This document shows positions 19,071 through 41,497 of a stretch of DNA of 64,000 bases, piece by piece. Source of the stretch: a bacterium (GTDB lineage Bacteria; Myxococcota_A; UBA9160; SZUA-336); NCBI GenBank assembly GCA_024226335.1, contig JAAELY010000545.1, positions 10,523 to 74,522 on the forward strand, given 5' to 3'. Under the pieces are notes generated by a model. The model ran no database searches and was not told where the DNA came from. It saw only the letters and a list, made by a program, of their open reading frames with translations. The translations under genes and the position numbers were made by a program. Within the stretch, counting starts at the first letter, position 1. Each line of letters begins with the position of its first letter.

Positions 19071-19589
19071 TCACTTCTTTGCTTTGTCCCCTCGGAATAA
19101 ACTCTTCAATGACTTGACGTTTCCCGCCTGGGGCGCGTGACACATCGTGCAGTTGAAACGCGTCCCCGCGACATCCTTGGCCTTCTCGTAGCCCTTTACC
19201 CGATTGCGCATAGCGTCGCTCTTCTTGCCCTGCACGATCACTGCGCGTTCGAAGTGCGTCTTGGGCAGAGGCAGATCCTGCTTGCTCGTGGCATTTTCGG
19301 GATGGTGGCACACCATGCATTCGTTGTCGTCCGAAGTGATCGGAAGCATGTCCTCGACGGTATGCGGGATCGAAGGTGGCGCTTCAGAGAAGGAGCGTTC
19401 GATCAGCTTCGATTCGCCAGCGGCCGTCCCGATGTAGTTCGCCAGGTCCTGCCGACTCATCGCGTCGAGATCCGAGTCGCGGAACCAGACATCGAGACCG
19501 TCGTCCACCTCCTTGACTGGATCGGCTGCGGGCGCAAGACCGGGCAGCAAGAGTGCGCTCGCGATCAGGATGCAGAATATCGCTCTCAT
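19071..19589 (-). CDS. napB: NapB, diheme cytochrome c subunit of periplasmic nitrate reductase.
   Basis: Signal peptide. CMVCHHP and CTMCHAP are the two CXXCH motifs. Confidence 0.8.
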   Translation of the reverse strand: MRAIFCILIASALLLPGLAPAADPVKEVDDGLDVWFRDSDLDAMSRQDLANYIGTAAGESKLIERSFSEAPPSIPHTVEDMLPITSDDNECMVCHHPENATSKQDLPLPKTHFERAVIVQGKKSDAMRNRVKGYEKAKDVAGTRFNCTMCHAPQAGNVKSLKSLFRGDKAKK

Positions 19590-20416
19590 GGTGACCCCTC
19601 CTCCGGGCTATTTACCGCGCCTCCGCCGAAGCGGAGCGCGAAGTGATAGGCATCGCGCGGGCACACCTCGAGGCAGCGCGCGCAGTTCAGACAGTTTCCA
19701 TGGTCGATGAAGCCCCGTTGCTCCATCTCGTCGTAGCGAATGACCTTGGGTTCGGGACAGATGCGGATGCAATCGCCACAGTAATCGCAGCGTTCCTGAG
19801 CGAAACGCACACGCAGCAGCGACCAGCGGCCGACGAGTGAATAGAAGGCGCCGAGCGGGCAGAGTGAGCCGCACCAGCCCGGCCGCAGAACGAACAGGTC
19901 GAGCACGAAGATCCCGGCCACGACCAGCAAACCCAGACCCGGACCGTAGATCAACTCTCGATGAGTCATGGCGATCGGACTCAGCCACTCGAAGGCCGCC
20001 ACTCCGGTGATCGCCGAGACCGGCAACGCCAGAAACATGATCCAATAGCGAACGCTGCTGTCCACATGCAGGCTGCGACGACCGTCTAGACGCGGACGCA
20101 GCCAGGCGGCCAGATCCGTGACTGGATTCAGCGGACAAACCCAGGCGCAAAATCCGCGACCTCCGAATACGTACCAGAAGCCGAGTACCGTCACCGCACC
20201 CAACAACACCGTATTCTTCAGGGTATGACCCGTTGAAAGAATCTGCAGAACGGCGTAGGGGTCGGACAGAGGAAGCGTGCGCAAGACTCGAGAGGCCGAG
20301 AGATTCCCCGTCAGTACGCCGAGGTGCCAATGCGCACCTAGCCAGAACAGAACGAGAATTCCGATCTGGGTCGTTCGCCGGGCAAGTAGGTAGCGGTGCT
20401 TCCGTAGCCAACTCAA
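19586..20416 (-). CDS. napH: NapH, membrane-bound ferredoxin-type quinol dehydrogenase subunit (TTG start).
   Basis: TM helices carry CxxCP (FCAWVCP, WCGSLCP). C-terminal [12 protein letters not shown] and [12 protein letters not shown] are two 4Fe-4S motifs. Confidence 0.8.
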
Positions 20417-21207
20417 GGCCCCTCAATTCCAGAGAGATCATCCATCTGCTCGAGTACGCGCTCGAGACTGTTCTCCCATTGCGGCAGGTCCGGCGCCGTC
20501 TCCGGCGCCTTGAAATCACCACTGATGTCCGTTTCTTCGAGCCAACCGAAGCGATAGTTGTCGCCCAGTTTGCCCCGCGCCTGCTCAACGGGCAGCACCT
20601 TGATCGCAGCCTCTTCGAGTACGCAGACGTGCTCACACTTTCCACAGCCGGTGCAGGCGTCGGAATTGACGACCGGAATGAAGTAGGCGTGCTTGCCCGT
20701 GCGCTCGTTCTGCCGGAACTCCAGGCCGATCGCCTGGCCCATGAGCGGGCAGGCTCGGTAGCAGACCTCACAACGCAGACCCTTGTAGGCCAAACAGTTC
20801 TCGTGGTCGACGAGCACCGCGAGCCCCATCTCGGCCTCTTCGATGGGCGTTCCGGACACGAGTGCATCGGTGGGACAAGCCTCGGTACAAGGCGAATCGG
20901 GGCACATTTCGCACGGTACTTTGCGCGGTTCGAAGTACGGCACGCCGATCGCCTCACCGTCTCCAGCCGTCGCGATCTGCAGCGTATCGTAGGGACAGGC
21001 TTCCACACACTGGGAACACTTGATGCAGCTCGCCAGGAAGGCGGGCTCATCTTGAGCACCAGGAGGACGAGGCGCAGAGACGCTGGCTCGCGACTCACCG
21101 GCGACATGCACCCAGGTCATGCCACCAGTCAGCGCCAGAGCCAGGCTCTGCGGCTTGAAAGCCGCCAGGAAACCCCGGCGGCTGACGTCCTTTGCGGGAA
21201 GGCTCAC
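20413..21207 (-). CDS. napG: NapG, periplasmic 4x[4Fe-4S] ferredoxin-type subunit. Probable GTG start at 21207, right after the napA stop; the track extends it to 21270.
   Basis: Tat motif SRRGFLAAF. Four Cys clusters ([46 protein letters not shown]). Confidence 0.8.
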
Positions 21208-21209
21208 GG

Positions 21210-23810
21210 TCAGGCCTTTCGCACTCTCACAGCGCACTTCTTGTAGTCGGTCTCCTTCGAGATCGGACAAGTCGCATCCAGAGTCAGCTTGTTGATCAAC
21301 ACGTTCTCGTCGAACCAGGGCACGAATACCAGACCTTTCGGTACACGATTGCGACCCTGTGTATCAACGCGCACGCGCACCTTTCCGCGCCGCGACTCCA
21401 TCACGACCTCGTCGTTGCGCTTGATGCCACGCGAGGCCGCATCCTCAGGGTGCATCCAACACACCGCGTAAGGCACCGCACGGTTGAGCTCCGCAACACG
21501 CTTGGTCATCGAACCCGAGTGCCAGTGCTCGAGCACCCGACCCGTGCACAACCACAGGTCATAGCCCTTGTCCGGAATCTCTGCGGCCTCAGCGTAGGGC
21601 CGGAAGAAGATCTTCGCGCGACCCGCCACACTCACCTTCTCACCCTTGAGACTGCCGTTCGGGATCTTCTTCAGCGCCTTGCCGTAGAAGTCGTACCCCT
21701 TGCCGGGCTTCACGTAGGGATCGTAGCCCTCCTTGAAGCGCCACTGCGTCTCGCGCCCATTAACCACCGGCCAACGCAGACCTCGCACCTTGTGATAGGT
21801 ATCGAAATCCGCCAGGTCGTGACCATTGCCGAGACCGAACTCGCGGTACTCGGCCCACAGCGCCTTGTGCACGAAGAATCCCGCCTCCTCGGCCACATCG
21901 TTGGGATGGCCATTGGCAATCGGATCGGGCCAGGCGTGCTTCTTGTATTCGGGCCGCGCGAACAGAACTTCGTACAGCGTCTGTTCGGGGTCGTAGCCCA
22001 TCTTCTTGGCATCTGCGAGCACATCGGGAAGCTTGCCGTCGGGGAAACCGTCGACCTTCAGACCGGGCAGTGGCTGCTCCTTCCACACTTCCTTCAGCTT
22101 GAAGCGCTTCGAGAATTCCATCGTCTGCCAGATATCGGCCTTCGCCTCACCTGGAGCCTTCACCTGCTGACGCCAGTGTTGCGTTCGCCGCTCGGCGTTT
22201 CCGTAGGCGCCCCACTTCTCGTAGATCATGGCCGCTGGCAGGACCAGATCGGCGACCTTGGCCGACACCGTAGGATAGGCATCCGAGACGACGATGAAGT
22301 TATCGCCCTCGCGCGCCGCCTTGACCCACTCGTTGGCGTTGGCGAAGTCCTGGAATGGATTGGTCACCTGCGCCCAGAAAAAGCGCACCTTGCCCGACCG
22401 CAACTGGCGCATCATCTTGACCGCGTGCGTCCCCACCTTGGGGTTGAGCGTCTTCGCGGGCAGATGCCAGAGCTTCTCGCTCTTGGCACGATGGCCACCG
22501 TTGAAAACCACCATGTCCGACGGTAGGCGATGCGCGAAGGTGCCGACCTCGCGCGCGGTACCGCAAGCCGAAGGCTGTCCGGTGAGCGAGAAAGCTCCCG
22601 AACCGGGCGTCGACATCTTGCCACCCAGGAGGTGAATGGCGTAGATCTGCTCGTTCACCCAGGTACCGCGCGAATGCTGGTTGAAACCCATTGTCCAGAA
22701 CGAAATGATCTTCTTCTTGCGATCCGAATACAGATCAGCCAGCTCGATCAGCTTCTCCTTCGACACGCCCGAGATCTTGCTCACGTGCTCGGCCGTGTAG
22801 GGCTCGAGCTGCTTCTTGTACTCCTCGAAACTGATCTTCCAGTGTGCGCCGGCTTTGCCGCGCATCTTCTGGCCTTTCTCGCGCGGGTGGTCGGCAGGCA
22901 ATCCGTAACCGATATCCGTCGGGCCGGTTGCAAACACACAGTGCTTGTCGATGAACTCCTTGTCGATCGCCCCCTTCTTGATCATGTGGCGAGCGATGTA
23001 GTTCATGATCGCCAGGTCGGTCTGCGGCTTGAAGATGATCTCGACGTCCGCGAGATCGCTACAACGATTCCCGTAGGTAGAGAGATTGATGACCTTGGTC
23101 GCGGGCTTGCTGAGCTTGCGATCGGTGACCCGCGACCACAGGATCGGATGGCACTCGGCCATGTTCGCGCCCCAGGTCACGACGGCATCTGTCTGTTCGA
23201 TATCGTCGTAGCAGCCCGGAGGCTCGTCGATACCAAACGTCTGGATGAATCCAGCAACCGCGGACGCCATGCAGTGTCGAGCGTTCGGGTCGAGATTATT
23301 CGAGCGGACGCCCGCCTTCATGAACTTGGCGGCGGCATACCCCTCGTCAATCGTGTATTGGCCAGAGCCGAAGACCGCAACACTCGACGGACCGTACTGG
23401 CCGTAGTACTGCTTGAATTTCTGCTCCATCACGTCGAAGGCCTTGTCCCAGGACACCGGAGTGAAGCGGCCCTTCTTGTCGTACTTGCCATCCTTCATGC
23501 GCAAGAGGGGCTTCGTGAGCCGATCCTCTCCGTACATGATCTTGGCGTTGAAGTAGCCCTTGATGCAGTTGAGACCCCGGTTCACAGGCGATTCAGGGTC
23601 GCCCTTGACCGAAACCACACGGCCCTCCTTGGTGGCCATCATGATTCCGCAACCGACGCCACAGAAGCGGCACACGGACTTGTCCCACTTCCAATCCTTC
23701 TGCAGTTCTGCAGCCTGTGCCCGCGCTTCGGGCGGAATGGAAATTCCGATTCCGGTGGCCACTGAGGCCGCAACCGCCGTCTTGACGAACTCCCGTCGCG
23801 TCTGTGCCAT
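21210..23810 (-). CDS. napA: NapA, periplasmic nitrate reductase catalytic molybdopterin subunit.
   Basis: Tat signal [45 protein letters not shown] is the N-terminal [4Fe-4S] motif. 866 aa. Confidence 0.9.
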
Positions 23811-23910
23811 GGATCCCTCCGTGGTATCGCGCCTTGTTGGCGCGTGCCGTTTTGTCCCTGCATCGGGACGGCGGCCCCAGTTACAGCAAGCCGCGTGCCG
23901 ATCCGTGAGT

Positions 23911-24150
23911 TCAGTCGCCGTCGGGCAGCGTCACGGATTCCGCCATTTCAGCCATCGCCACGTGTTCGAGTTGTTGGATTTCACGAAGGCGATCGGCGCC
24001 CTCACCTCCACTGACGGCTTCGATCGTCACCACAAGACGCCCCACACCGTCGTGGTGGTGTACCTGGGCCCAGGGAAACGCGTTTATTGCGGTAGATACC
24101 TTTTCGAGATTCTCGGGACGACACGCGACGACCACGCCAGAAACATTCAC
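23911..24150 (-). CDS. napD: NapD, NapA maturation chaperone (GTG start).
   Basis: 79 aa, immediately upstream of napA ([13 protein letters not shown]...). GAGG RBS. Confidence 0.65.
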
Positions 24151-25124
24151 GATGCACCTCCGTCCGACACGTCCCAGACCAGCACGCGGGCATCATTGCC
24201 CGCGGACAACAACCTGCGGCCTCCGTCGGTAAAACGTAGCACCTGAACCGGTGCAGTGTGGCGATCTAACACATGCGTGACTCGACCGCTCAGCAAGTCG
24301 ATCACCTTGATCCGATCGCCCTGCAGGGCAATGGCCAGACGCCCGCGCACACGATCAGCCGCCAGCGCCGTAATATAATGATCGTCTCGATAGAGTACGC
24401 GAGGCTCGGAACCGTTCAGGTCCCATACGAGCAGGCGTTTGTCCTTGCTCGCGGTGGCCAGTCGCGTTCCCGATAGCCAGGCCAGTCCGAAGACGCTGTC
24501 GCGGTGCCCGCGCAACACGGACGCCGTCTCTCCATTGGAGATGTCGATCAACTGCACGCGACTCGAGCGAAGCGCCACCGCCATCTGCTTCCCGTTCGGA
24601 CTCATGGCCAGAGCGTAGACCGGATCGTAGTCGAGCTGGCGGCGGAAGCGCTCCTCTCCGGTCGTCACGTCAAACAGGCTGACTTCTCCTGTCATATGGC
24701 CCAGGAAAAGCCGATCGTCGTCGACGAAACGGCAGGTCGTAACTCGAGCCAGTTCGAACTGATGCGTCGTTTCCGGGCGACCGTCAGCAGTGAAACGCCA
24801 GAACCGCAAGCGGTCATCGGAAGCCGCTACTGCGACCCGCGTTCCCGAGGGCGACACAGCGACACAACTCACGGTTGCCGGAAACTCCTTCTCTCCGGCA
24901 TCGATCACGAGCAGAGGAGCAAGCACGCGCTGCCTGCGCCAGTCGAGAACATCTACATGACCGGACTGCGTCGCTACCAGTAGTATCGATTCGCGCAACG
25001 CGCCGTCGAGCACCATGTGGTCTGCGCGCATCTCGGCCTCGAGTTGCGCGTGGGCTGGAGTGGCTAGAAAAAAGGCCGAGAATAGAGCGGCTGCAACACC
25101 GACCCGCGCGTCAGCCGTCCTCAT
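24147..25124 (-). CDS. napL: Periplasmic WD40 beta-propeller protein, NapL-like.
   Basis: Signal peptide (AALFSAFFLATPAHAQ). Repeated WD-like blades (RLLVWD, ARVLVWDV). Embedded in the nap operon, overlapping napD as ATGA. Confidence 0.5.
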   Translation of the reverse strand: MRTADARVGVAAALFSAFFLATPAHAQLEAEMRADHMVLDGALRESILLVATQSGHVDVLDWRRQRVLAPLLVIDAGEKEFPATVSCVAVSPSGTRVAVAASDDRLRFWRFTADGRPETTHQFELARVTTCRFVDDDRLFLGHMTGEVSLFDVTTGEERFRRQLDYDPVYALAMSPNGKQMAVALRSSRVQLIDISNGETASVLRGHRDSVFGLAWLSGTRLATASKDKRLLVWDLNGSEPRVLYRDDHYITALAADRVRGRLAIALQGDRIKVIDLLSGRVTHVLDRHTAPVQVLRFTDGGRRLLSAGNDARVLVWDVSDGGAS

Positions 25125-26334
25125 AGCGGAGTTGACCGTTGTTGATGGCCATTGCGACCTTCACCATGAGCGTGAACAGCAGCGCTCCGATCGACCAGAC
25201 AGCTGCACCAACCATGAGTTCGTTCAGGCTCGGGTTGTAGGCGTAGACCTCACCCAATGCGTCGGGCGTCATACCGGGAAGCAGCAGACCGAGACCCTTC
25301 TCGATGAACACACCCAACACCGCGAGCGCACAACCCAGGTTCAAGACGGCGATGCGGTGGCGCAATACCGGAATTACGAAGATCACAAAGGCCGCGAGGT
25401 TGCTCAGCAGTGCCGTCCAGGTGTAGATGGCGATGTCAGTGCGCTCCGCCGTTCCAAACCACTGGAAGTGTCCGTGGGTCGTGTGGGCCGTTTCGAAGTA
25501 GAACTCCTTGAATACCTCGACGCCCAGGAAGAACAGGTTGACGGCCATCGCGTAGGCCAGCAACTCGCCGATCTTCAGCAGAGCGGTGTCCGTCAGGCGC
25601 ATATGCCCAACACGACGCAGGATCTGGAAGATCAGCACGAGAAGGGCGGGACCCGAGCAAAACGCGCTGGCCAGGAAACGCGGCGCAAGTATGGCCGTGT
25701 GCCAGAACGGCCGCGACGCCAGACCCATGAAGAGGAAGGCCGTCACGGTATGGATGAGGACCGCCAGTGGAATCGACAGGAAGATGACCGGCATGATGAA
25801 GGCGGCGTTGTACTTCTGGCCAAGGAAGCTCTTGTAGAGCAAGTAGGTGACGATGAAGTAGTTGACCAGCAGGTACAACGAGACCACCAGGATGTCCCAT
25901 ACCAATAATGATGATGGGAAATTCGGTTGACCGACCCCGGGCATCAGGTGCCAGATCACTTCGGGTCGGCCGACGTCGACGTTCACGAAGAGAATCGCCA
26001 TCACGATGGCCGCCACAGCCACGAGTTCTCCGACCAGGACCAGTTCCTTGATGGGCCCCCAGTCGTAGATATAGGCGGGTATCACCAGCACGACTGCCGC
26101 GGCTGCCACACCCACGAGAAACGCAAAGTTACCGATGTAGAAGCCCCAGGAAACCTGATCGCGCATGTTCGAGGTGATCAGGCCGTTCTGGAGCTGATTG
26201 GCGTAGGCGAGCCCGCCGACGGCAATCACGACCAGGAGTACGCCGATCCAGGTCCAGTAGCCGGAGTGCCCCCGTGTAACCACGGAGATGCTGCCCTTCA
26301 CGAAGCTCAAGAAATGGAGGAGTACCTGTCTCAT
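25111..26334 (-). CDS. NrfD/PsrC-family polytopic membrane quinol-interacting subunit.
   Basis: ~10 TM, 407 aa. Follows the NrfC-like FeS protein. Confidence 0.65.
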   Translation of the reverse strand: MRQVLLHFLSFVKGSISVVTRGHSGYWTWIGVLLVVIAVGGLAYANQLQNGLITSNMRDQVSWGFYIGNFAFLVGVAAAAVVLVIPAYIYDWGPIKELVLVGELVAVAAIVMAILFVNVDVGRPEVIWHLMPGVGQPNFPSSLLVWDILVVSLYLLVNYFIVTYLLYKSFLGQKYNAAFIMPVIFLSIPLAVLIHTVTAFLFMGLASRPFWHTAILAPRFLASAFCSGPALLVLIFQILRRVGHMRLTDTALLKIGELLAYAMAVNLFFLGVEVFKEFYFETAHTTHGHFQWFGTAERTDIAIYTWTALLSNLAAFVIFVIPVLRHRIAVLNLGCALAVLGVFIEKGLGLLLPGMTPDALGEVYAYNPSLNELMVGAAVWSIGALLFTLMVKVAMAINNGQLRYEDG

Positions 26335-26339
26335 GGCGC

Positions 26340-27272
26340 TTACCCGTAGAAATAGAAGAACTTGGGGTTGGTCTTGAGTTCCGCTTTGAGCACGAAGGTT
26401 CGCTTGTGCTTGAGCAGATATCGGATCTCGCTATTCGGGTCGAGCAGGTTCCCGAACTTGCGCGCGCCAACCGGACAGGCCTCATGGCATGCCGGGTAGC
26501 GTCCCTCGCGCACCCGCTGAATACAGAAGGTGCACTTCTCCACGACACCCCGCGGTCGCGGCCGATTGCCGATGATATGCGTATCGGTATTGATCTCGTC
26601 CTTGGGAATACTCGGCTCACCCCAGTTGAAGTGGCGCGCGCCGTAGGGACATGCGGCCATGCAGTAGCGACAGCCGATGCACCAATCGGAATCGATCACG
26701 ACGATGCCGTCCGCTTCCTTCCACGTCGCTCCAGTCGGGCAAACACTGGTACACGGCGAGTCCTCACAGTGCTGGCAGGCGATCGGGAGATACATCTTGT
26801 CTTCAGCGGGCACTTTTTCGTGGTCGTAATAGGCGTTGCCATGCTCGAGGTCGATGCCGCGTATCATGTCCTCGCGCTCGAACTCGAGCACGCGGATCCA
26901 GTGGATCTCAGGATCGCGGGACTGGTTGTTCTCCGCCACGCATGCATACTCACAGCGTCGACAACCGATACAACGGGATACGTCGAGACCGTAGCCAAAG
27001 ACCACACCGTCGACGGGCCCGGTGGCCTTCACCTTCATGTCGACGCCGAGCTTCTTGGAGTACTTGCGCTCGAGGCGCTCCAACACCTCGGCCAGTTCTT
27101 CGTCGGACATCTCGCGGAAGTGCTTCTGCAGAAAGGTCTCGAAGTCGAAGGCCTGCGCGGCGCCTGGAACGGCCGCCGCGGCGCCAATACCCGCCAGCGA
27201 CGTCTTCAGGAACTCGCGGCGCGAGGCACCGCGTTCTTTGCGCTCTTGCGGCTTCGCGCTAGCTCGCTTCAT
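26340..27272 (-). CDS. NrfC/PsrB/DmsB-like 4x[4Fe-4S] electron-transfer subunit with Tat signal. ATG at 27270-27272.
   Basis: Tat signal SRREFLKTSLAGIGAAAAVPGAAQA. Four clusters: CIGCRRCEYAC, CQHCEDSPCTSVCP, CIGCRYCMAACP, CTFCIQRV...CHEACP. Confidence 0.75.
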   Translation of the reverse strand: MKRASAKPQERKERGASRREFLKTSLAGIGAAAAVPGAAQAFDFETFLQKHFREMSDEELAEVLERLERKYSKKLGVDMKVKATGPVDGVVFGYGLDVSRCIGCRRCEYACVAENNQSRDPEIHWIRVLEFEREDMIRGIDLEHGNAYYDHEKVPAEDKMYLPIACQHCEDSPCTSVCPTGATWKEADGIVVIDSDWCIGCRYCMAACPYGARHFNWGEPSIPKDEINTDTHIIGNRPRPRGVVEKCTFCIQRVREGRYPACHEACPVGARKFGNLLDPNSEIRYLLKHKRTFVLKAELKTNPKFFYFYG

Positions 27273-27900
27273 CGTGCGGCTCCTTGCCGGCGATTGCCTC
27301 CGGCCGGCGTGGTGGGCGCTTCGGCTCGATGGGCTTGAAAGGTGGATTGTGCGGATCGTGGCAGACCACACATGTGCGGTATTCCTTCGGACCCCACCAA
27401 TGCCCCGTGCGCTTGCCGTGCACGCCTGCACGCCAGTCGGGCAACTTCTTGGCGTGGCACTGTGTGCACAGTTTCCACGAGTCTTCGAACGGAATATTCG
27501 TATCGTCGGCTAGACGCAGTTTCTGCCGATCCCGCGGATTCGGATTGTGGCAGCTGTAGCACCAGAGATTGCCGTGCGCGAAATCCAGTTCGTCGTGCTC
27601 GTCCTCCAACTCGCGCACATCGCGCTCTGGGAGATCGCTCGACTCGTGGCAATCCGAGCACGGCAGGTAGTCGTCGGCGATTTCGGGTGCAGCGAGAAGA
27701 ACGGGTTCGGGCTCGGGCGGCAACGTGCGACTTGCCGATGGGCGCGGAGTGTCGGGATCGAAATCGGTCTGCACCGAGAAGAGCACGAACGCCAGAAGCA
27801 CTGCCCCGCTGATCACAGCCCAGGTCGCCATCTGGTGTGGAGGGGGCGCCCACTCCCCCTCGACTTCTTCTCCCGGTTGACCGGAGTCACCTTCCGCCAT
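27259..27900 (-). CDS. Membrane-anchored tetraheme cytochrome c (NapC/NirT/NrfH-like).
   Basis: One N-terminal TM helix (WAVISGAVLLAFVLFSV). Four CXXCH motifs: CSDCH, CYSCH, CTQCH, CVVCH. Confidence 0.7.
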   Translation of the reverse strand: MAEGDSGQPGEEVEGEWAPPPHQMATWAVISGAVLLAFVLFSVQTDFDPDTPRPSASRTLPPEPEPVLLAAPEIADDYLPCSDCHESSDLPERDVRELEDEHDELDFAHGNLWCYSCHNPNPRDRQKLRLADDTNIPFEDSWKLCTQCHAKKLPDWRAGVHGKRTGHWWGPKEYRTCVVCHDPHNPPFKPIEPKRPPRRPEAIAGKEPHDEAS

Positions 27901-27902
27901 GA

Positions 27903-28511
27903 CTACTCAGGGTCGTCTGCCGTCGGGTCGTAACCCTCGGGCACAGGGTGGGCGATCTTCTTCAAAGCCTCTTCGTAGTCGAAGCCCGATTTGCCGCCGT
28001 CGGAGCAACTGTAGCGTTCAGGATCCCAGGCTGGACTTTCGTCGTTGTGGCAGGCGACGCAGACCTTCTCGCTCTGTTCGACCAGACCCTTCGAGAGCGC
28101 CTTGTCTCGGTCGATCATGACCTTCTTCTTGCGATAGTCCTTGCCCGCACCGTGGCAGGATTCGCACTGCACACCGGCGGTGCGAACGAACTTGCGCGAT
28201 ACCATCTCATCGGGCACGCCGTGGGCCGTCACGTGGCACTTCACGCATTCGTCGGCCTTCTGGGGATCTCCGAGACCCTTCTCAGTGGCCCACTTGCGAG
28301 CCTTGTCACTCGCAAGCGTCTCGAACGCCTTGCTATGCAGTGAATCCTTCCACCAGGCGTACTGATCTCCGATGGCTTCTTTCTCGTGACAGGACTTGCA
28401 CTTCTTCACGCCGACAAACTTGTGGTCTTTGGCTTGAACGGATCCCGGACCAACAACCAACAACATCGAAAATACCAGCAGAAAAAGAGTCATTACGCGC
28501 AAGCCAATCAC
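27903..28511 (-). CDS. Periplasmic tetraheme cytochrome c.
   Basis: Signal peptide. Four CXXCH motifs: CKSCH, CVKCH, CESCH, CVACH. Confidence 0.7.
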   Translation of the reverse strand: MIGLRVMTLFLLVFSMLLVVGPGSVQAKDHKFVGVKKCKSCHEKEAIGDQYAWWKDSLHSKAFETLASDKARKWATEKGLGDPQKADECVKCHVTAHGVPDEMVSRKFVRTAGVQCESCHGAGKDYRKKKVMIDRDKALSKGLVEQSEKVCVACHNDESPAWDPERYSCSDGGKSGFDYEEALKKIAHPVPEGYDPTADDPE

Positions 28512-28590: not shown

Positions 28591-30207
28591 TCAGTAAATA
28601 TCGTGAACTGTGTTGTACACGTTCCACTTGCCGGTGGGCGTTTGCAGCCAATCATTCTTGAGGCGCTGCTTCTCCTTCAGCGTCTTGTCGTCGTAAATGA
28701 TGACCTCGCCCTGCTTGTCCCATACCGACGCCCATACTTCATCGCCCGCCTTGTTGTACTCGAAGTGGACGATCTTTCCGTGGTCGGTGGCCTTCCAGCA
28801 CTTGGCACCCTCGTCGAAGGCGTCCTTTCTGAAGACACAGATCTGCTGGTTGTCGCCCTTTTCCTTGGACAAAGTTGCGTCAGTCCAGACGTGATTGCTC
28901 TTGGGATGCGTCTTCAGGAACAGTCCGGGACCACCGGTCTCCTCCTCTCGGACGACCTTCCAGGCGTGCTCCGGATGCCCGGCCGGGTCCGACCCGTACA
29001 CGGATATGAGTCCTTCACCTAGATGGGTGGTTGCGCTCACCGGTCCGTATTTCGGGTCTACCCAGTTCGCACCGCGTCCGGGATGTGGCTTTACCCCGGT
29101 CTCGAACTTGGTCACGAACTTCTTTTCCTTTGTATCCACGACGACGATCTGGTCACGCATGTTCGCCGCGATCAGGAGATAGCGCTTGGTGGCGTCCCAA
29201 CCTCCGTCGTGCAGGAACCGCTCGGTCGCGATCTGCGTCATCTTCAGGTTGTCGAGGTCAGAGTAGTCCACCAACCAGACCATTCCGGTCTCTTTGATCG
29301 CCACGACCCACTCGGAGTCGAAGTGCGAAGCGATGATCGTCGCCACGCGCGGTTCCGGGTGATACTCGTTTGTATCGTAGGTGGAGGATCGGGTGGAGAT
29401 GACCTTGATCGGCTCGAGGGTCTGTCCATCAACCACGACCATCTGCGGCGGCCAGTAGCAACCGACGATCGCCAACTTGTCGCGGAAGTCACCCTTGGGT
29501 CCCTTGTACTTCGAAACGTCAACGGATCGCGCGTCCAGGCAGACACGAACCTCGGCCACCACCTCGGGCTTCTTCTGGTAGAGGTCGATCAGGGTGAGCT
29601 TGCCGTCGCGACCGATCGTGTAGAAGTAACGACCGGTGAAGGAAGCTCGGAAAATGTGAACGGCGAAACCGGTCTTGAGGACGCTTACCGCCTCCTTGGT
29701 GTCGCCGTCAATGATTGCGGCCTTACCAACGTCGCGCAGGATGTAACCGAAGGTGTTGTCGATGTCCCGGCTGTGTTCGGGCTTCTTCGGCCGCTTGGAA
29801 ACCGGAATGTGGACCTTATGGGTCTCCTTCATCTCCTTCAGGCTCATCTCCGGCGGAATCGGCACCGGATTCTGTACAAACTTCGCCATCAGGGCCGTCT
29901 GGGCCTTGGTCATCTCACCTGTTCGGCCCCAGCCGGGCATTCCGGCGTCGGTACCTTCGAAGATCGTCTTTTCCAATTCGGGAAGCGTCTGCTCCAACAT
30001 CTTCTTGTCGGTGATGCCGGGGCCGGTAGCGCCCTTGCGAAGCGCACCGTGACAGCCGGAGCAGCGGTCGAAATAGATAAACTGCGCTTCCTCAAACTCC
30101 TTCTCGGAAAGCTTGGGAGCCGTTGCACCGCTGGCAATCGAGGGGGCGATCAGTGCAGTCGTCGCCAGGACCACCGCGAAGAACCGAAAAATTCGCAAGC
30201 CTGTCAT
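28591..30207 (-). CDS. nirS: Cytochrome cd1 nitrite reductase NirS. ATG at 30205-30207; the track ORF extends to 30429.
   Basis: MTGLRIFRFFAVVLATTALIAPSIASGA is a signal peptide. FDRCSGCHG is the heme c site. Followed by a d1 propeller ending ...TGKWNVYNTVHDIY. GGAGG RBS. Confidence 0.85.
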   Translation of the reverse strand: MTGLRIFRFFAVVLATTALIAPSIASGATAPKLSEKEFEEAQFIYFDRCSGCHGALRKGATGPGITDKKMLEQTLPELEKTIFEGTDAGMPGWGRTGEMTKAQTALMAKFVQNPVPIPPEMSLKEMKETHKVHIPVSKRPKKPEHSRDIDNTFGYILRDVGKAAIIDGDTKEAVSVLKTGFAVHIFRASFTGRYFYTIGRDGKLTLIDLYQKKPEVVAEVRVCLDARSVDVSKYKGPKGDFRDKLAIVGCYWPPQMVVVDGQTLEPIKVISTRSSTYDTNEYHPEPRVATIIASHFDSEWVVAIKETGMVWLVDYSDLDNLKMTQIATERFLHDGGWDATKRYLLIAANMRDQIVVVDTKEKKFVTKFETGVKPHPGRGANWVDPKYGPVSATTHLGEGLISVYGSDPAGHPEHAWKVVREEETGGPGLFLKTHPKSNHVWTDATLSKEKGDNQQICVFRKDAFDEGAKCWKATDHGKIVHFEYNKAGDEVWASVWDKQGEVIIYDDKTLKEKQRLKNDWLQTPTGKWNVYNTVHDIY

Positions 30208-30392: not shown

Positions 30393-30788
30393 CTAGCCCA
30401 CGTCTGCGAGTGTGGTCGTTGAGGCCCACGAACGGAAGGCTTCACTCATCTGGACCCAGGCCGGATGCAATGGGCAGGGATCGCTCGGGTCACACGCACC
30501 CCAACCGAAAACACACCGGTCGTCACCGGGATAAGCGTCGACCGCAGCCAGGATTTCTGTAAAGGGAATCTCCGACGGTGGACGCGCCAGCTCGAAGCCC
30601 CCTCCCACTCCTTTGTAAGACTCGAGCACCCCGGCCACGACGAGACGTCGGAGAATTTTGGCCAGATACGGCGCGGGAATGCCCGTCTCATTGGAGAGAT
30701 CGCGAGCGCGGACCGGCGTCTCGTCGGGATTCGCCGCGAGCCAGGCCGCTGCGCGAAGAGCGTATTCGGCTGTCTGTGACAGGACCAT
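30393..30788 (-). CDS. nsrR: Rrf2-family transcriptional regulator, NsrR-like NO sensor.
   Basis: N-terminal wHTH (TAEYALRAAAWLA..). Three-Cys cluster CVFGWGACDPSDPCPLH. Upstream of nirS and divergent from the nnrS-like gene. Confidence 0.75.
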   Translation of the reverse strand: MVLSQTAEYALRAAAWLAANPDETPVRARDLSNETGIPAPYLAKILRRLVVAGVLESYKGVGGGFELARPPSEIPFTEILAAVDAYPGDDRCVFGWGACDPSDPCPLHPAWVQMSEAFRSWASTTTLADVG

Positions 30789-30801
30789 CCGCTGCCCGAC
30801 C

Positions 30802-30826
30802 TCGTTTCGCAGTCTCGTTTCGCAGA
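30802..30826. repeat. Tandem direct repeat 2x ctcgtttcgcag (1-nt spacer) in the nsrR/nnrS-like divergent region.
   Basis: cctcgtttcgcag t ctcgtttcgcag, seen directly in the sequence. Confidence 0.5.
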
Positions 30827-30876
30827 TTTCGTCCCGCCCTGGTGCTGCAAAACATGGACCGGAAGAACTCGATATC

Positions 30877-30889
30877 TGCTACTGTAGCA
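30877..30889. promoter_or_regulatory. Inverted repeat TGCTAC-T-GTAGCA in the nsrR/nnrS-like divergent promoter region; candidate Rrf2 operator.
   Basis: Perfect 6-1-6 palindrome in the sequence. Confidence 0.3.
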
Positions 30890-30961
30890 TCCTGGTGGAC
30901 CAACGGATCTGAAGGTCCACTATCCCCCCCATGGATCATCGCAGGCGAGGAGGCTCGAGGA

Positions 30962-32404
30962 ATGTCCGCGTCCGGAAGCATGCCGCAACCGGAAGAGTCG
31001 CCCGTCGCACGCCTGTGGCTGGGACTCTCCCTGTTGGTGCTGGTCTTCGCGGGCCTGTTTGCGCTGGCCGTGGTCGTCGCTCGAACGCCACCGTTCGACC
31101 GCCTGGTGACCGATCCACTGTTCTTCAAACGATGCCTGGCCGCGCACGTAAACCTGGCCCTGGTCGCGTGGTTCTACTCCTTCCTGGCCGGCCTGCTCTT
31201 CCTGCTTCCGGGACGCGAACGCCCCGGGTGGCTGGCGAGGCACTCGGTCCATATCGCTGGCACGGGCATCGCCCTTTTACTCGTCGGCGCGTCCATGCCC
31301 GGCGGTCGCCCCGTACTCGCGAACTACATCCCGAGCATCGACCATCCACTTTTCCGCACGGGTCAGTTCCTGTTCGGCCTGGGCGTTCTCACCAGCTTGT
31401 TCGACCGTCGGTTGTTCTGGGCGCGCGATGCGGTATCGGGCCCCCTGCAACTTTCGGATGCATGTATCGCGGGCCTGCGGGTTGCCGCACTCGGACTGTT
31501 GCTGGCGTTGCTTACTTTCGGTCTCTCCGCCCTGAGCCTTCCGGCGGGACTCGACCCCGATGCGCGCTGGGACTTGCTGGTATGGGGCGGGGGCCACGTT
31601 CTTCAGCTGGTTTGTGTAATCGCAATGCTCTCGGTCTGGCTGCTGTTGCTCACACCGGTACTGGGCAGACCCCCGGTCAGCGGCCGGGGCGCGACCTGGA
31701 TCTTCGGCGCGATGCTCATGCCCTGGACCCTGGGCCTGCTCTTCCTGCTTCAGGGAACCGGGAGTCCGGCCTATCGGACCGGCTTCACCTCGCTGATGCA
31801 GTGGGGAATCTTCCCGCCCGTACTGGTGTTTCTGGCACTGTGCGGACGCGCGTTGGTACTCGCCGTGCGCGAGCAGCGCATCGGCCGACGAGCTTTCGGC
31901 GATCTGCGCATATCGGCCTTCCTGGTGAGTGCTGCACTCACCTTGGTGGGCTTCGCCCTCGGTGCCTCGATCCGCGGATCGAACACGATGGTACCGGCGC
32001 ACTATCACGCCTCGGTCGGTGCGGTGACGGTGGCCTTCATGGCGGCCGCCTACCCGATACTCGCCTGCTTTGGGCTGGCACTTCCCACTGCGCGGATGCG
32101 CAAAGCCGCGGCCTGGCAGCCGCTATTGTACGGTGGGGGTATGCTAGTGTTCGCAGCCGGTTTTGCGCTTGCGGGCGCCTACGGCATGGGCCGAAAGGTC
32201 TATGGCGCCGAACAGGCAGCGCGAGGGCTGGCCGAGTCGGTGGGGCTGGGCTTGATGGGGTTTGGCGGCTTGATCGCAATTGTCGGGGGAATGCTTTTCC
32301 TCGTCGTGGTCGCCAACGCCTGGTGGCGCGGCATCGAATCGGATGAACCGATTACTCTTCACCTGGGACGGAGGTGGCGCTTTGGAAACGAAGAACACGG
32401 ATGA
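30962..32404 (+). CDS. 12-TM membrane protein, NnrS-like (heme/copper membrane protein of NO-responsive regulons). Assignment tentative.
   Basis: 12 predicted TM helices. Intramembrane His in TM2, TM3 and TM6, plus HYH in TM10. GAGGAGG RBS before the ATG at 30962. Divergent from the Rrf2 gene. Confidence 0.45.
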   Translation: MSASGSMPQPEESPVARLWLGLSLLVLVFAGLFALAVVVARTPPFDRLVTDPLFFKRCLAAHVNLALVAWFYSFLAGLLFLLPGRERPGWLARHSVHIAGTGIALLLVGASMPGGRPVLANYIPSIDHPLFRTGQFLFGLGVLTSLFDRRLFWARDAVSGPLQLSDACIAGLRVAALGLLLALLTFGLSALSLPAGLDPDARWDLLVWGGGHVLQLVCVIAMLSVWLLLLTPVLGRPPVSGRGATWIFGAMLMPWTLGLLFLLQGTGSPAYRTGFTSLMQWGIFPPVLVFLALCGRALVLAVREQRIGRRAFGDLRISAFLVSAALTLVGFALGASIRGSNTMVPAHYHASVGAVTVAFMAAAYPILACFGLALPTARMRKAAAWQPLLYGGGMLVFAAGFALAGAYGMGRKVYGAEQAARGLAESVGLGLMGFGGLIAIVGGMLFLVVVANAWWRGIESDEPITLHLGRRWRFGNEEHG

Positions 32405-32427
32405 AAAGCATCCCATTCAACGGCTCA

Positions 32428-32537
32428 TGGACAACCCGTGGCTACTACTCGTGCTGGGAGTCTTGATCCCGACCGTGTCCTACACGATCTGGGGCTGGAT
32501 CGAGTTACTGAGCACGCCTGCGGCCACACTACCGTGA
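32428..32537 (+). CDS. Candidate 36-aa single-TM peptide, possibly an oxidase subunit IIa analogue.
   Basis: MDNPWLLLVLGVLIPTVSYTIWGWIELLSTPAATLP lies directly upstream of the one-TM CuA subunit II. The RBS is weak. Confidence 0.3.
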
Positions 32538-32559
32538 CGGTCCGGCAAGGGAGAACGAT

Positions 32560-33087
32560 ATGAGTATCCATCAGCCACCGGCTGACTGGTTCAAGGCACC
32601 GGACAGCACCGAGCGCCTGTGGGTGGGACTCGCGTTGATCTGGTGCCTGGTGATGTTCATCGCCATGCCGTACTGGTATTTTTACGGCAAGCAGAACAGC
32701 GTCGGTGAGGGGTACCTCGTCGAGCCGATGGAGTTCAGCCAGCGTGTCAGCAAGTTCGTAGAGACCAATAAGGTCGGCGAATTGAAGGGCATTCCGATCG
32801 TCGAGGCGGCGCCGGGAGGCGACGTCTATCTACAGGCGATGATGTGGAGCTGGTTCCCGGTCATCCAGATGCGCAAGGATCAAACCTACCGTCTGCACAT
32901 CTCGTCGTTGGACCTGCAACACGGCTTCTCGATACAGCCGCTCAACATGAACTTCCAGATCCTGCCCGGCTACGACCACGTACTGACCATCACGCCGACG
33001 AGTGCCGGCGAATTTTCGATCGTATGCAACGAGTTCTGCGGTATCGGGCACCACCTGATGACCGGCCGCATTCTCGTCGTCGAGTAG
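32560..33087 (+). CDS. Heme-copper oxidase superfamily subunit II, single TM plus a cupredoxin CuA domain (B-family / NOR-like).
   Basis: DLQHGFSI followed by CNEFCGIGHHLM gives the H...CxExCGxxHxxM CuA ligand set. 175 aa with one TM helix. Confidence 0.8.
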   Translation: MSIHQPPADWFKAPDSTERLWVGLALIWCLVMFIAMPYWYFYGKQNSVGEGYLVEPMEFSQRVSKFVETNKVGELKGIPIVEAAPGGDVYLQAMMWSWFPVIQMRKDQTYRLHISSLDLQHGFSIQPLNMNFQILPGYDHVLTITPTSAGEFSIVCNEFCGIGHHLMTGRILVVE

Positions 33088-33108
33088 GAGAGGCCGCGAT
33101 GACCACGA

Positions 33109-34847
33109 CGACCATCGGAGACGTCCCGTTCGAAGGCGGGGCTTCGGGAAACCACCAGGGCGCAGTCCGCAGTTGCGATACAACGGGCCTGCCCGTCTGC
33201 CTGGGCGCACAGCGCTTCATCAAGCTTCACGCAGTAGTCGCCGTCGTGTGGCTACTCATCGGCGGCACCGCCGCCATCCTGATCGCACTCACGCGTTGGC
33301 CGGCCGTGCATCTGCTCCCCGCAGACTGGTACTACCGGCTTCTGACACTGCACGGTCTCGACATGCTGATCTTCATGATCTTGAACTTCGAGATCGCGAT
33401 CCTGTATTTCGCAGGCACGACGTTGCTGAATTGCCGACTAGCATCGACCAAGGCCGCCTGGCTCGCTTTCGCGCTGATGCTGATCGGCGGCATCATGGTG
33501 AATATCGCGGTACTGAACGGCAGTAGCGATGTGCTGTTGACGTCGTACGTGCCCCTCAAGGCCAGCCCCTGGTTCTACCTGGGCATCATCCTCCTGGCCG
33601 TGGGTGCGCTGGTCGCAGTAATCAACTTCTTGGCCACGCTCTATATCGCGAAGCGAGACCACACCTACGAGGGTTCGGTGCCGCTCGTGGTATTTGGCGC
33701 GACGGCTGCCGCCATCATCGCAGTCGTGACCCTCTTGCACGGCGCGGTCGTGATGATCCCGACCTGGCTGTGGTCGATGGGCGTGGTCGAGTACATCGAT
33801 CCGGCCTGGTACCGCATAACCTGGTGGGCACTGGGCCATATGTCCCAGCAGATCAACGTATGCGCAATGGTCTCGGTCTGGTATCTGCTGGGGACACTGA
33901 CTGTAGGAGCTCAGCCGGTAAGTCAGCTCGTGTGCCGGGGCGCTTTCGTGCTCTACATCTTGTTCATCAACGTGGCTTCGGCCCACCACATCCTGGTCGA
34001 TCCGGCCGTGGGCGCAAGCTGGAAGATCTGGAACACCGGTTACGCCATGTACCTGGCCGTACTGGCTTCGATGATCCACGGCCTGACCGTACCGGCCTCG
34101 ATCGAGGTCGCCCAGCGCAAGAAGGGCTTCAACCGCGGTCTGTTCGGCTGGCTGGTGGCAGCTCCGTGGAGCAACCCGGGTTTCTCGGGTTTCTTCCTTT
34201 CGCTGATCATTTTCGGCTTCGGCGGCGGCATCACCGGAGTCGTGCTGGGCACGCAACAGATCAACATCATGGCGCACAACACACTGCGCATTCCCGGGCA
34301 CTTCCACGTGACCGTCGTAGGCGGTACGGCACTGGCTTTCATGGCAGTCACCTACTATGTGGTGCCCCTGATTTTCCAGCGCGAGTTCTACCTGAAGACC
34401 TGGTGCCGCATCCAGCCGTGGCTGTTCGGCGGCGGTATCACCCTGATGTCGATCGGCATGTCGTTCGCAGGTTCCTACGGGGTCCCGCGCCGGCACTGGG
34501 ACATGGAGTTCACAGGGGCCATGTTCTCGACCGGATTCGACTCGGGCGCACACCTGATGCTGGGCTTGATGGGAGTGGGTGCGATCATCGCAGTCACCGG
34601 CCTGTTGGTATTCGTCCTGCTCGTGGTCGCGGCCGTATTCTTCGGCCGCTCGAACGCGGGCCGCGCGATGACACCGTGGCACGAGGAACGGCAGGTCGCC
34701 GAGAAGTTCCGCACCGAAGACACAGCCGGAGATGACGAACACAGCATGCCGGGAACTCTTGTACTGGCACTGTTCTTCCTGGCCTGCTTCGTCGTGTACT
34801 ACTTCGCCAACTGGATGTGGCTGGCCGACGTCTGGCACGTGCGCTGA
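33109..34847 (+). CDS. Heme-copper oxidase superfamily subunit I, B-family-like. The helix VI Tyr is replaced by Gln (candidate eNOR-type NO reductase).
   Basis: TM2 LTLHGLDMLIFM (heme His). Helix VI WWALGHMSQQ aligns to WFFGHPEVY (His kept, Tyr replaced by Gln). Helix VII ASAHHILV (the HH pair). Helix X IPGHFHVTVVGG (HxH). RBS GAGG before the ATG at 33109. Confidence 0.75.
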
Positions 34848-34863
34848 TCGTGGAGAAACGACG

Positions 34864-35784
34864 ATGGAACGGATCACGCGCTTCGTAACGGGGGGCGGGC
34901 TACCCGCCTTTGCGCTGCCACTGCTGGTCTTCTATCAGGGGTTGCTGGTCGCTCTCCTGTTCACGCCACCCGCGGCGACGGGGCTGGGTGCGTTCGCTGA
35001 GGATTTCCGTCTCTGGTGTTTCGGTTACGACCCGTCGACGGGCAATCTGAGATGGGGCCCGGTTGTGGCCATGCTCCTACCACCACTGGTGCTGGGCGTG
35101 GCCTTTCTGGTTTTCTGGTGGAAACAGCTGGGCGAGATGGCGATGCGACCGATGACGCTGATCCGACCGGCCGCACTCGCGGCCAGCCTGGTCATTGCCG
35201 CCGCTTTCGTCTTCTCCCTGCTAGGCGGCAGCAGCCCGCAGGCGGGCGACCTGAGTTTTCCGGCAGACGCATTGCGCACGAGTTTCAAACCGCCCGAGAT
35301 CTCGCTGACCAGCCACACAGGGGAACCCGTCGACCTGGCACGATTGAAAGGCAAGGTCGTCCTGGTGACGGCTGTCTACGCCAGTTGCCCGCACACCTGC
35401 CCGCTGATCCTGACCCAGGCAAAAAAAGCCATCGCCGAACTGGATCCCACTGAGCGCCGAGATCTGCACGTGATCGGCGTGACCATCGACCCCTCCAACG
35501 ACAGCCCGGAAGTACTCGCCGAGCTGGCCGAGATGCACGACCTGACACCCCCTCTTTACAACCTGGTGACCGGTGACACCGCGGAAGTAGAGCGGGTTCT
35601 CGACGATCTCGGCGTCGCCAGGCAGTACAACGAAGAAACTGGACAGATCGACCACGCCAATCTCTTCGTTCTGGTGGACCGAAGCGGTCGCATCGCGTAC
35701 CGCTTCTCGCTTGGAGAGAACCAGCAGCGCTGGCTGGTTTCGGGCCTGCGCGTGCTACTGCACGAGCCCGGAAACCTTGGCTGA
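34864..35784 (+). CDS. SCO1/SenC-family copper chaperone with an N-terminal multi-TM membrane domain.
   Basis: Thioredoxin-like domain with CPHTCP (Cx3CP). 3-4 N-terminal TM helices. RBS GGAGAAA. Confidence 0.7.
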   Translation: MERITRFVTGGGLPAFALPLLVFYQGLLVALLFTPPAATGLGAFAEDFRLWCFGYDPSTGNLRWGPVVAMLLPPLVLGVAFLVFWWKQLGEMAMRPMTLIRPAALAASLVIAAAFVFSLLGGSSPQAGDLSFPADALRTSFKPPEISLTSHTGEPVDLARLKGKVVLVTAVYASCPHTCPLILTQAKKAIAELDPTERRDLHVIGVTIDPSNDSPEVLAELAEMHDLTPPLYNLVTGDTAEVERVLDDLGVARQYNEETGQIDHANLFVLVDRSGRIAYRFSLGENQQRWLVSGLRVLLHEPGNLG

Positions 35785-41487: not shown

Positions 41488-41497
41488 GAGATCAAGA

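Follow-up and report, generated by a model that had tools for sequence, protein, structure and literature searches.

The question raised by this locus is how a cytochrome cd1 nitrite reductase, NirS, receives its electrons. The stretch of DNA analysed, here termed the window, is 64,000 nucleotides (nt) in length and comprises positions 10,523 to 74,522 of contig JAAELY010000545.1 (assembly GCA_024226335.1) from a bacterium of the lineage Myxococcota_A, UBA9160, SZUA-336. Electron supply to cd1 NirS is textbook knowledge only for the bc1 complex with c551, azurin or pseudoazurin, or for NirT. In the window nirS is followed by four genes that encode a secreted tetraheme cytochrome c with similarity to cytochrome c554, a membrane-anchored tetraheme cytochrome c, an iron-sulfur (FeS) protein exported by twin-arginine translocation (Tat), and an integral membrane subunit of the NrfD type. 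These four genes are probably, though by no means surely, transcribed together with nirS and code for a respiratory menaquinol:cytochrome c oxidoreductase from which NirS draws its electrons. This would be a different, self-contained route that is hard-wired into the nirS operon in a group of uncultured denitrifiers.

All four open reading frames (ORFs) are on the minus strand and directly 3' of nirS, as the original prediction had placed them. The c554-like gene begins 79 nt beyond nirS, and a consensus scan of this gap gave no terminator-like site. The gene for the anchored tetraheme follows after 2 nt, the FeS gene overlaps it by 14 nt, and the NrfD gene lies 5 nt further downstream, such that no gap or overlap inside the block exceeds 14 nt. 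From this operon-like packing the four genes are most likely co-transcribed with nirS. There is no molybdopterin gene inside the block, which confirms the claim that a molybdopterin catalytic subunit is absent, and neither a second NrfD-like gene nor an ActD/E homologue was found there. The inventory of the block consists of signal peptide or Tat motifs, eight hemes, 16 cluster cysteines and an NrfD fold with ten transmembrane (TM) helices. Gene anatomy, export signals, cofactor motifs, fold, family assignment, operon-like packing and synteny are the properties that were established directly. They bear out three further proposals made originally, i.e. a periplasmic tetraheme cytochrome with a signal peptide, a Tat-exported protein with four [4Fe-4S] clusters, and an NrfD-like subunit with about ten TM helices.

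The membrane subunit matches the Pfam NrfD family (PF03916) at 135.5 bits (cutoff 25.8). Ten TM helices are displayed both by hydropathy and in an AlphaFold2 (AF2) model, which has a predicted template modelling score (pTM) of 0.81. The best Foldseek matches of the model are the ActC chains 8k9e_C, 6btm_C and 6lod_C of alternative complex III (ACIII), with TM-scores of 0.76-0.79, and ActC chains of ACIII are also the only sequence relatives in the PDB. The partner characteristic of the NrfD/PsrC family, a Tat-exported ferredoxin with four clusters, is encoded immediately upstream. With the NCBIfam models, DsrP and DsrO rank well ahead of QrcC/D, NrfC/D and TtrB for the window pair, and the membrane subunit scores 365.8 bits against the DsrP model (cutoff 350). 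It is thus classed, by its sequence, as a DsrP homologue. Asp is retained at position 120 in at least 97% of 77 family members, and D120 aligns with His139 of ActC (6f0k_C). The cryo-electron microscopy (cryo-EM) structure of DsrMKJOP shows a strictly conserved Asp lining the quinol pocket of DsrP at the position where ActC has His (10.64898/2026.08.25.746951). The equivalence of D120 with DsrP Asp107 is taken from the statement in this preprint, our own alignment being that with ActC His139. The subunit would be the one that oxidizes menaquinol.

The ORF of the FeS protein spans positions 26340-27431, and the likeliest true start is at position 27272, which is preceded at 8 nt by an AAGGAG ribosome-binding site and gives the protein the Tat motif SRREFLK. 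Its 16 Cys fall into four ferredoxin-type motifs, and Pfam shows Fer4_11 (70.7 bits) together with a TAT signal. Its PDB relatives are ArrB, PsrB and the C-terminal domain of ActB. NCBIfam scores are 192.5 for DsrO (cutoff 200), 160 for QrcC and 121.3 for NrfC (cutoff 377.6), and the subunit is assigned as a DsrO homologue. It would act as an electron wire between the quinol site and the hemes. Residues ~42-90 form a helical extension of about 50 residues after the Tat signal (FxxFxQKHFREMSxEELxxVLERLER...). This extension is kept in the Geobacter and Desulfopila homologues, is outside of the DsrO model match, and may be a family-specific docking element.

These assignments raise the possibility that the FeS and membrane genes are simply DsrO and DsrP of the sulfite-reduction complex DsrMKJOP, as automatic annotation has it for relatives. 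The DsrP score does exceed the model cutoff, and NCBI records of relatives (P0044, P0077, P0166, P0210) are auto-named DsrMKJOP subunit DsrP or "sulfate reduction ... DsrP". However, dsrM, dsrK, dsrJ, dsrAB and dsrC are found neither in the 64-kb window nor among the Pfam-annotated genes of the related loci inspected, the DsrO score falls under its cutoff, and the partner cytochrome is an all-His tetraheme, not the triheme DsrJ. The literature also holds DsrOhPh apart from canonical DsrOP (PMC13047784). The DsrP model itself is too broad. All family members tested pass its cutoff in any context, i.e. nap operons, Geobacter, Holophagaceae and Planctomycetota, and the equivalog takes in the whole non-Dsr family at 366-431 bits; this breadth is seen in survey loci L024, L030, L087 and L088. 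The relatives carry the DsrP name at NCBI because the model accepts all of these members. The naming is likely a systematic mis-annotation of non-Dsr relatives in denitrifiers, Geobacter relatives, Holophagaceae and Planctomycetota, and a DsrMKJOP identity for the window pair is barely credible.

The anchored tetraheme cytochrome has its TM helix at residues 22-44 (AF2, with a predicted local distance difference test score, pLDDT, above 90) and CXXCH motifs at residues 81, 114, 145 and 177. A Pro-rich linker of about 35 residues extends from the end of the helix (near residue 44) to the first CXXCH at residue 81. Eight His residues are invariant in 40 homologues, namely the four in the CXXCH motifs and H102, H109, H161 and H184, which suggests that the protein probably carries four bis-His hemes. 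Its gene is directly upstream of the FeS gene, and this arrangement is conserved in about 70 loci. The cytochrome had been predicted to be of the NapC/NirT type. The single TM helix and the four CXXCH motifs agree with this; the family assignment does not hold, as the match to Pfam PF03264 (NapC/NirT) reaches 14.0 bits (E = 0.042) where the cutoff is 24.1. Weak PF03264 matches are present in 33 of the 40 relatives (best E = 7e-6), and a remote relationship of the heme domain to NapC/NirT is possible. A PDB sequence search with the anchored cytochrome as query returned noise-level matches only.

In NrfH, heme 1 is close to the TM helix and forms the quinol site. No such arrangement is seen in the window cytochrome, where the linker intervenes. 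Because the linker separates the helix from heme 1, the anchored cytochrome is read as a relay and not as the quinol-oxidizing subunit, and it would pass electrons from the FeS subunit to the c554-like protein or to NirS. This sets the arrangement apart from classical nirSTB, a distinction that was part of the original prediction and is supported here. NirT of the P. stutzeri nirSTB operon, like NapC, NrfH and CymA, is a membrane-anchored tetraheme, and NirT is likewise encoded beside nirS; there is also the weak similarity of the heme domain noted above. Unlike these proteins, the window cytochrome is below the Pfam threshold, has the long linker, and has hemes that are probably all bis-His. 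In NirT-type systems the cytochrome oxidizes quinol, whereas in the window this role is assigned to the NrfD-type subunit.

The c554-like cytochrome displays a signal-like hydrophobic segment at its N-terminus and CXXCH motifs at residues 38, 89, 116 and 151. It matches Pfam PF13435 (Cytochrome_C554) at 68 bits (cutoff 20.8) and aligns with Nitrosomonas europaea c554 (PDB 1BVB) at E = 1e-11, with all four heme motifs covered. Candidates for distal His ligands are H59 and H188, which are invariant, and H30, which is mostly conserved; the fourth is not conserved. Most relatives have Tyr in place of H97, and a Met at position 132 is conserved. Because one heme is without a conserved distal His, it is possible that this heme is five-coordinate or His/Met coordinated, as in nitrifier c554. 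The window protein and N. europaea CycA share four heme motifs of equal order and spacing, three conserved distal His, and one heme that lacks such a ligand. They are not orthologues. The NCBIfam CycA equivalog gives 65.8 where the cutoff is 400, an HAO-like gene was not found in the window, and there is no HAO or cM552 partner; the assignment as a nitrifier CycA orthologue is rejected. CycA delivers electrons to a quinol dehydrogenase, whereas the window protein is placed to receive them from one. It would serve as a soluble or peripheral shuttle from the membrane complex to NirS.

The likeness to nitrifier c554 gives rise to an alternative in which electrons flow in reverse, the module being a cytochrome c:quinone reductase such as Qrc or the nitrifier c554/cM552 pair, or in which the c554-like protein is itself catalytic and binds or reduces NO. 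The c554 family is known from the hydroxylamine oxidation chain, and the heme without a conserved distal His (H97 mostly Tyr, Met132 conserved) would be in keeping with catalysis. Yet HAO or another periplasmic dehydrogenase was not found in the window or in related loci, the neighbours are all reductases, and the CycA score is far under its cutoff. We consider this alternative very improbable.

With quinol oxidation as the starting point, the proposed path to NirS would be as follows. Quinol would be oxidized at a periplasm-facing site of the cofactor-less DsrP/ActC-type subunit, with protons released to the periplasm. Electrons would pass through the four [4Fe-4S] clusters of the DsrO-like subunit to the all-bis-His tetraheme, which would be tethered alongside by its one helix and flexible linker, then to the secreted c554-like tetraheme, and from there to the heme c domain of NirS and on to heme d1, where nitrite is reduced to NO. 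The first part of this path has a precedent in the cryo-EM structure of DsrMKJOP, in which the quinol in DsrP is less than 8 Å from a DsrO cluster and the flow is from DsrP to DsrO to the DsrJ hemes (10.64898/2026.08.25.746951). Proton release to the periplasm would amount to 2 H+ per 2 e-, with no charge separation unless the subunit pumps as has been proposed for ACIII. That the proteins assemble into a complex, that electrons take this direction, that NirS accepts them, and that protons may be pumped are inferences from synteny and homology.

The choice of NirS as the acceptor depends on the genes that surround the block (Table 1). The window represents a complete denitrification island, which also contains nirDL/F/J/N. 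The nirS gene has matches to Pfam Cytochrom_D1 (407.7 bits) and Cytochrome_CBB3, its start at position 30207 has a GGAGG ribosome-binding site, and it is 82% identical to the nirS genes of related loci.

Table 1. Positions of the four-gene block and of neighbouring features within the window
Feature	Position	Strand	Description
napD-napA-napG-napH-napB	19071-24150	-	NapD, molybdopterin, Fer4, Fer4_5 and NapB matches
napD	23911-24150	-	Pfam NapD, 72.6 bits
WD40 beta-propeller, periplasmic	24147-25124	-	WD40 repeats; signal-peptide-like hydrophobic N-terminus
NrfD-type integral membrane subunit, DsrP/ActC type	25111-26334	-	407 amino acids (aa); 10 TM helices
FeS protein, Tat-exported, DsrO/NrfC-type	26340-27272	-	310 aa; four [4Fe-4S] motifs
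Anchored tetraheme cytochrome c	27259-27900	-	213 aa; one TM helix, 4 CXXCH
c554-like cytochrome c, secreted tetraheme	27903-28511	-	202 aa
nirS, cytochrome cd1 nitrite reductase	28591-30207	-	N-terminal heme c domain and d1 propeller
Rrf2-family regulator	30393-30788	-	directly upstream of nirS; Pfam Rrf2, 98.6 bits
Nitric oxide reductase (NOR)-like cluster, divergent from nirS	30578-38803	+	heme-copper-oxidase genes
nosZ cluster	39190-48372	+	nosZ, nosD, nosF, nosL, nosY

The block had been described as inserted between nirS and the nap genes. It does adjoin nirS, but a WD40 gene and napD separate it from napA. The first 14 nt of the WD40 gene are shared with the end of the NrfD gene, i.e. 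the two are translationally coupled, and the WD40 protein is a possible accessory or scaffold. Of the other reductases in the island, Nap has its own NapGH quinol dehydrogenase and NapB, and the nosZ cluster contains c-type cytochromes and a NapH-like protein, which suggests a separate dedicated electron route to NosZ. This leaves NirS as the one reductase with no other linked donor. The original prediction saw in the module an alternative to the bc1 complex, which it may be; pet, act and dsr genes are absent from the 64-kb window.

Comparison with other genomes bears on the same question. The survey covered eighty genome loci and metagenome contigs (here given as L numbers), and the membrane subunit has thousands of homologues. 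The trio of anchored tetraheme, FeS protein and membrane subunit, in that order, is a conserved unit across many phyla. Its identity to the window is 60-76% in Myxococcota-like metagenome-assembled genomes (MAGs), about 50% in Planctomycetota, Holophagaceae, Nitrospirota, Bdellovibrionota and Desulfuromonadales, and about 40% in Gemmatimonadota and Desulfobacterota; the nearest homologues in Desulfobulbaceae MAGs are 38-39% identical and nap-linked. The trio is present in Acidobacteriota as well. A neighbour-joining tree shows three groups, one that is nap-linked, one that has no linked N-oxide reductase and in which the trios are often beside large multiheme cytochromes, and the Myxococcota-like group, in which the c554-like gene is always present.

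Eight independent related loci have the c554 gene ahead of the trio and 3 kb or more of sequence upstream, and in all eight nirS is the gene directly upstream (L001, L004, L006, L013, L091-L094). The sequences on the other side of the module vary. WD40-napDAGHB follows in L091, L092 and L094, as in the window, and napD-napA-napG-napB in L006, without the WD40 gene or napH. The module is followed by nirC-nirN in L001, L004 and L093, and the L013 contig stops about 1.2 kb beyond the NrfD gene. A WD40 gene between the NrfD gene and napD is present in L011, L047, L066, L091, L092 and L094 and absent in L001, L004, L006 and L093. The upstream flank of the nirS-linked loci consists of a NOR-like cluster or of unrelated genes.

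The trio is found in a different setting in the nap-linked clade of Desulfobacterota and Gemmatimonadota, where the gene order is napD-napA, a four-heme protein with an above-threshold NapB domain, and then the trio. In the cultured Desulfopila aestuarii, NapA scores above the cutoffs of both NapA equivalogs. Among the loci examined from D. aestuarii, Desulfobulbaceae and Gemmatimonadota, none showed a napG/H homologue within 10 kb, napC not having been searched for; L067 shows a weak NapH-like match (25%) upstream of napA. By position, the trio in the nap-linked loci stands where the Nap quinol dehydrogenase would be expected.

The module of the window could on this ground be a quinol dehydrogenase for NapA(B), with its adjacency to nirS resulting merely from the clustering of nir and nap genes. 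The trio is inside the nap operon in Desulfobacterota, Gemmatimonadota and L017, and the window block is itself upstream of napDAGHB on the same strand. Against this, the window encodes NapG, NapH and NapB, and in L001, L004 and L093, where nirS and the module are both present, the surrounding 7-10 kb contain no nap genes. Distance also argues for nirS, which is 79 nt from the block, whereas the WD40 gene, napD and a 100-nt gap lie between the block and napA. A role confined to Nap is very unlikely. An anchor of the Psr/Ttr type for NapA as a molybdoenzyme was rejected as well, in view of NapGH and NapB and of the intervening WD40 gene and napD.

The strongest rival is a general periplasmic substitute for complex III, in which the c554-like protein feeds NirS, the CuA-type NOR-like oxidase, NosZ and perhaps Nap, and is not dedicated to NirS. 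The position of the module at the centre of a complete denitrification island is in its favour, as is the presence of relatives beside nap genes or large multiheme cytochromes instead of nirS; moreover, the homologues in cable bacteria were earlier called a "candidate alternative complex III" (PMC13047784). The comparative data point the other way, for nirS linkage occurs in every locus of the subclade with c554 upstream of the trio, whereas nap and NOR linkage is variable. Nap and Nos also have candidate quinol dehydrogenases of their own, i.e. NapGH and the NapH-like protein at positions 45286-46242. On the whole this general role is held to be unlikely, and supply of NirS is preferred to it.

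Several observations weigh against a module dedicated to NirS, or against parts of the path proposed for it. In the sister subclade (L016-L019) the c554 gene comes after the trio and no nirS is within reach. The module there follows napA and/or napB, which are directly upstream in L016, L017 and L019; L017 has no napGH with its upstream nap genes, and the short L018 contig shows no nap genes. In the window napDAGHB also lies downstream of the block on the same strand, and the block could donate to Nap, the NOR-like oxidase or NosZ as well. Related loci encode small NirC-like monoheme cytochromes beside nirN, and these could be the real donor to NirS. The AF2 model of the anchored tetraheme, made from a 40-sequence alignment, has a mean pLDDT of 60.6 and is confident in the TM helix only. 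All carriers of the nirS-linked form are MAGs of uncultured organisms. Of the original claim of a quinol:cytochrome c module dedicated to NirS, the first part agrees with the anatomy and the link to NirS with the eight loci; the dedication is qualified by the trios in nap operons elsewhere, and NirS may not be the sole partner. The functional idea is largely sound, but its kind is not new.

Among described systems, the window trio matches the "DsrOhPh-tetrahaem" cluster, the comparison being with the cable-bacterial cluster by its description. This cluster is found in cable bacteria, some Desulfobulbales, and Gamma- and Betaproteobacteria (PMC13047784, 2026; also 10.64898/2026.08.25.746951). 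Its function is described as unknown, and earlier speculation had it as a candidate ACIII (PMC13047784; PMC10926707). In both cases the genes for DsrO and DsrP homologues are not with dsrMKJ but adjoin that of a four-heme all-His cytochrome c, organisms without sulfur metabolism are among the carriers, and the proposed flow is from quinol to the periplasm. The cable bacteria differ in having a separate small gene, TMH1, whereas the window tetraheme has its own helix; the window also adds a second tetraheme, of the c554 family, and fuses the cluster to the nirS operon.

The DsrJOP part of DsrMKJOP is similar in its ten-helix DsrP-type subunit with the conserved Asp of the quinol site, its Tat-exported DsrO-type protein with four [4Fe-4S] clusters, the membrane-tethered multiheme cytochrome on top, and P-side quinol oxidation. 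The window is however without DsrM and DsrK, which return electrons across the membrane, and its acceptor would be periplasmic. The cytochrome of DsrJOP is a triheme with a His/Cys heme, unlike the all-His tetraheme of the window.

Cbc4 (CbcSTU) of Geobacter sulfurreducens is a quinol:cytochrome c oxidoreductase that donates electrons to periplasmic PpcA in vitro, and the heme core of CbcS is reported to resemble NrfH and CymA (10.1101/2025.04.14.648717). Cbc4 shares with the window an anchored bis-His tetraheme with a linker, a protein with four [4Fe-4S] clusters, a cofactor-less membrane subunit, and a soluble multiheme acceptor. The two do not appear to be orthologous, as seen from L088 and L090. 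Compared with the window proteins, the CbcSTU-sized trio of Geobacter sp. and Desulfuromonas sp. TF (163/257/431 aa) shows identities of 25%, 34% and about 30%, and it has a membrane subunit unlike DsrP; it is a distant paralogue, which is putatively identified with Cbc4 (GSU0068-0070) by size and architecture alone. The adjacent upstream trio in the same organisms (203/308/435 aa) is 48%, 63% and 49% identical to the window and is the true relative. Cluster look-ups name these trios only generically, as "cytochrome c3 family" and "NrfD/PsrC family". Such tandem trios of cytochrome, FeS and NrfD genes, the first DsrOP-like and the second CbcSTU-sized, are found in Geobacter sp. and Desulfuromonas sp. 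TF (L088 4388-9997; L090 4409-10199) and in other Deltaproteobacteria and Bdellovibrionales (also L045, L033, L046 and L017).

A quinol dehydrogenase of the NrfCD type that works without a molybdoenzyme is an established concept, e.g. NrfBCD, SirCD and MccCD (PMC8076601; PMC11434368). NrfBCD of E. coli, SirCD of Shewanella and MccCD of Wolinella likewise lead from an NrfD-type quinol site through an NrfC-type FeS protein and a multiheme cytochrome to a periplasmic N- or S-oxide reductase. They belong to another branch of the NrfD family, with eight TM helices. The NrfBCD system uses the pentaheme NrfB and the acceptor NrfA, in contrast to the tetraheme pair and the proposed acceptor cd1 NirS of the window. 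NrfBCD itself was rejected as an identification on the NrfC score, which is 121.3 where 377.6 is needed, the lack of an NrfD equivalog match, and NrfB-like Pfam matches that are below cutoff.

ACIII (ActABCDEF) is likewise a quinol:cytochrome c oxidoreductase, and among solved structures its ActC comes closest in fold to the membrane subunit. An anchored multiheme, ActA, and a periplasmic FeS module are further points in common. The window differs in lacking the molybdopterin-like ActB domain (its 310-aa FeS protein consists of ferredoxin domains only), ActD, ActE and ActF, in its tetraheme in place of a pentaheme, and in the Asp that replaces the ActC His. On the absence of the ActB domain and of ActD-F, and on the four hemes of the cytochrome, ACIII was rejected too.

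A search of the literature on nirS in combination with NrfD, tetraheme or quinol found no description of the nirS-linked form or of the c554-like partner. A similar idea has been put forward for a different NrfD/FeS/cytochrome locus beside nap in Thermosulfurimonas (PMC5276818). What is new is the fusion to nirS and the added c554-family subunit; the family as such has been noticed and has not been characterised.

The nirS-linked and nap-linked contexts together provide a specific and testable hypothesis for a family that two papers of 2026 list as of unknown function. We advance it tentatively, as having a real chance of being right and a larger one of being wrong. DsrOhPh-tetraheme complexes may constitute a third widespread class of quinol:cytochrome c oxidoreductase besides bc1 and ACIII, a dedicated and possibly proton-motive entry of electrons for cd1 NirS in Myxococcota-like denitrifiers and for NapA in Desulfobacterota and Gemmatimonadota. 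Lineage-specific shuttles would have been recruited in each case, i.e. the c554-like protein in the former and the four-heme NapB-domain protein in the latter. If this is true, it is from the window and its relatives that the class would obtain its first physiological assignment. The subject bears on the energetics of denitrification (H+/e- yield), on false "dsr" calls in metagenomes, and on the modular evolution of NrfD-type complexes. Related forms are carried by cultured organisms, namely D. aestuarii DSM 18488 (nap-linked), Desulfuromonas sp. TF and Geobacter.

Some minor features of the nap-linked and related loci were also seen. The nap operons of the Desulfobacterota loci L087 (D. aestuarii DSM 18488, with the gene in question at 3453-4133), L080 and L083 encode a tetraheme of 226-233 aa with two NapB-type "PPxIPH" motifs. 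It exceeds the Pfam NapB cutoff with 28.2 bits and resembles a NapB that has been duplicated. In L006/L007/L010 (14258-15705) napG is directly followed by napB with no napH, and a DsrOP-like module is located just upstream; NapG may use another membrane partner in these loci.

The NOR-like cluster of the window starts with a weakly COX1-like protein of 608 aa, a small ORF, and a 175-aa COX2-like protein with a CuA-type motif, CNEFCGIGHHLM. Further genes encode a 582-aa COX1, SCO1, a 707-aa fusion, and a UbiA prenyltransferase. The 707-aa fusion consists of a cytochrome b, a 2x[4Fe-4S] ferredoxin and an FlpD/MvhD-like domain. The cluster probably encodes an NO reductase of a non-canonical heme-copper type, together with an unusual quinol-linked partner of its own, and its synteny recurs in L001, L004, L006, L092 and L093. 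The Rrf2-family protein encoded next to nirS is a possible NO- or nitrite-responsive regulator of the operon.

In the nosZ cluster, the cytochromes c are mono- and diheme proteins (41498-41839 and 41787-42566), the NapH-like membrane protein is of the Fer4_5 type, and there is also a 231-aa protein without a Pfam match. The flanks of the island contain a TetR-DUF2249 fusion and two AurF-like di-iron oxygenase homologues (7159-8736 and 2506-3603 on the minus strand, 12049-13011 on the plus strand).

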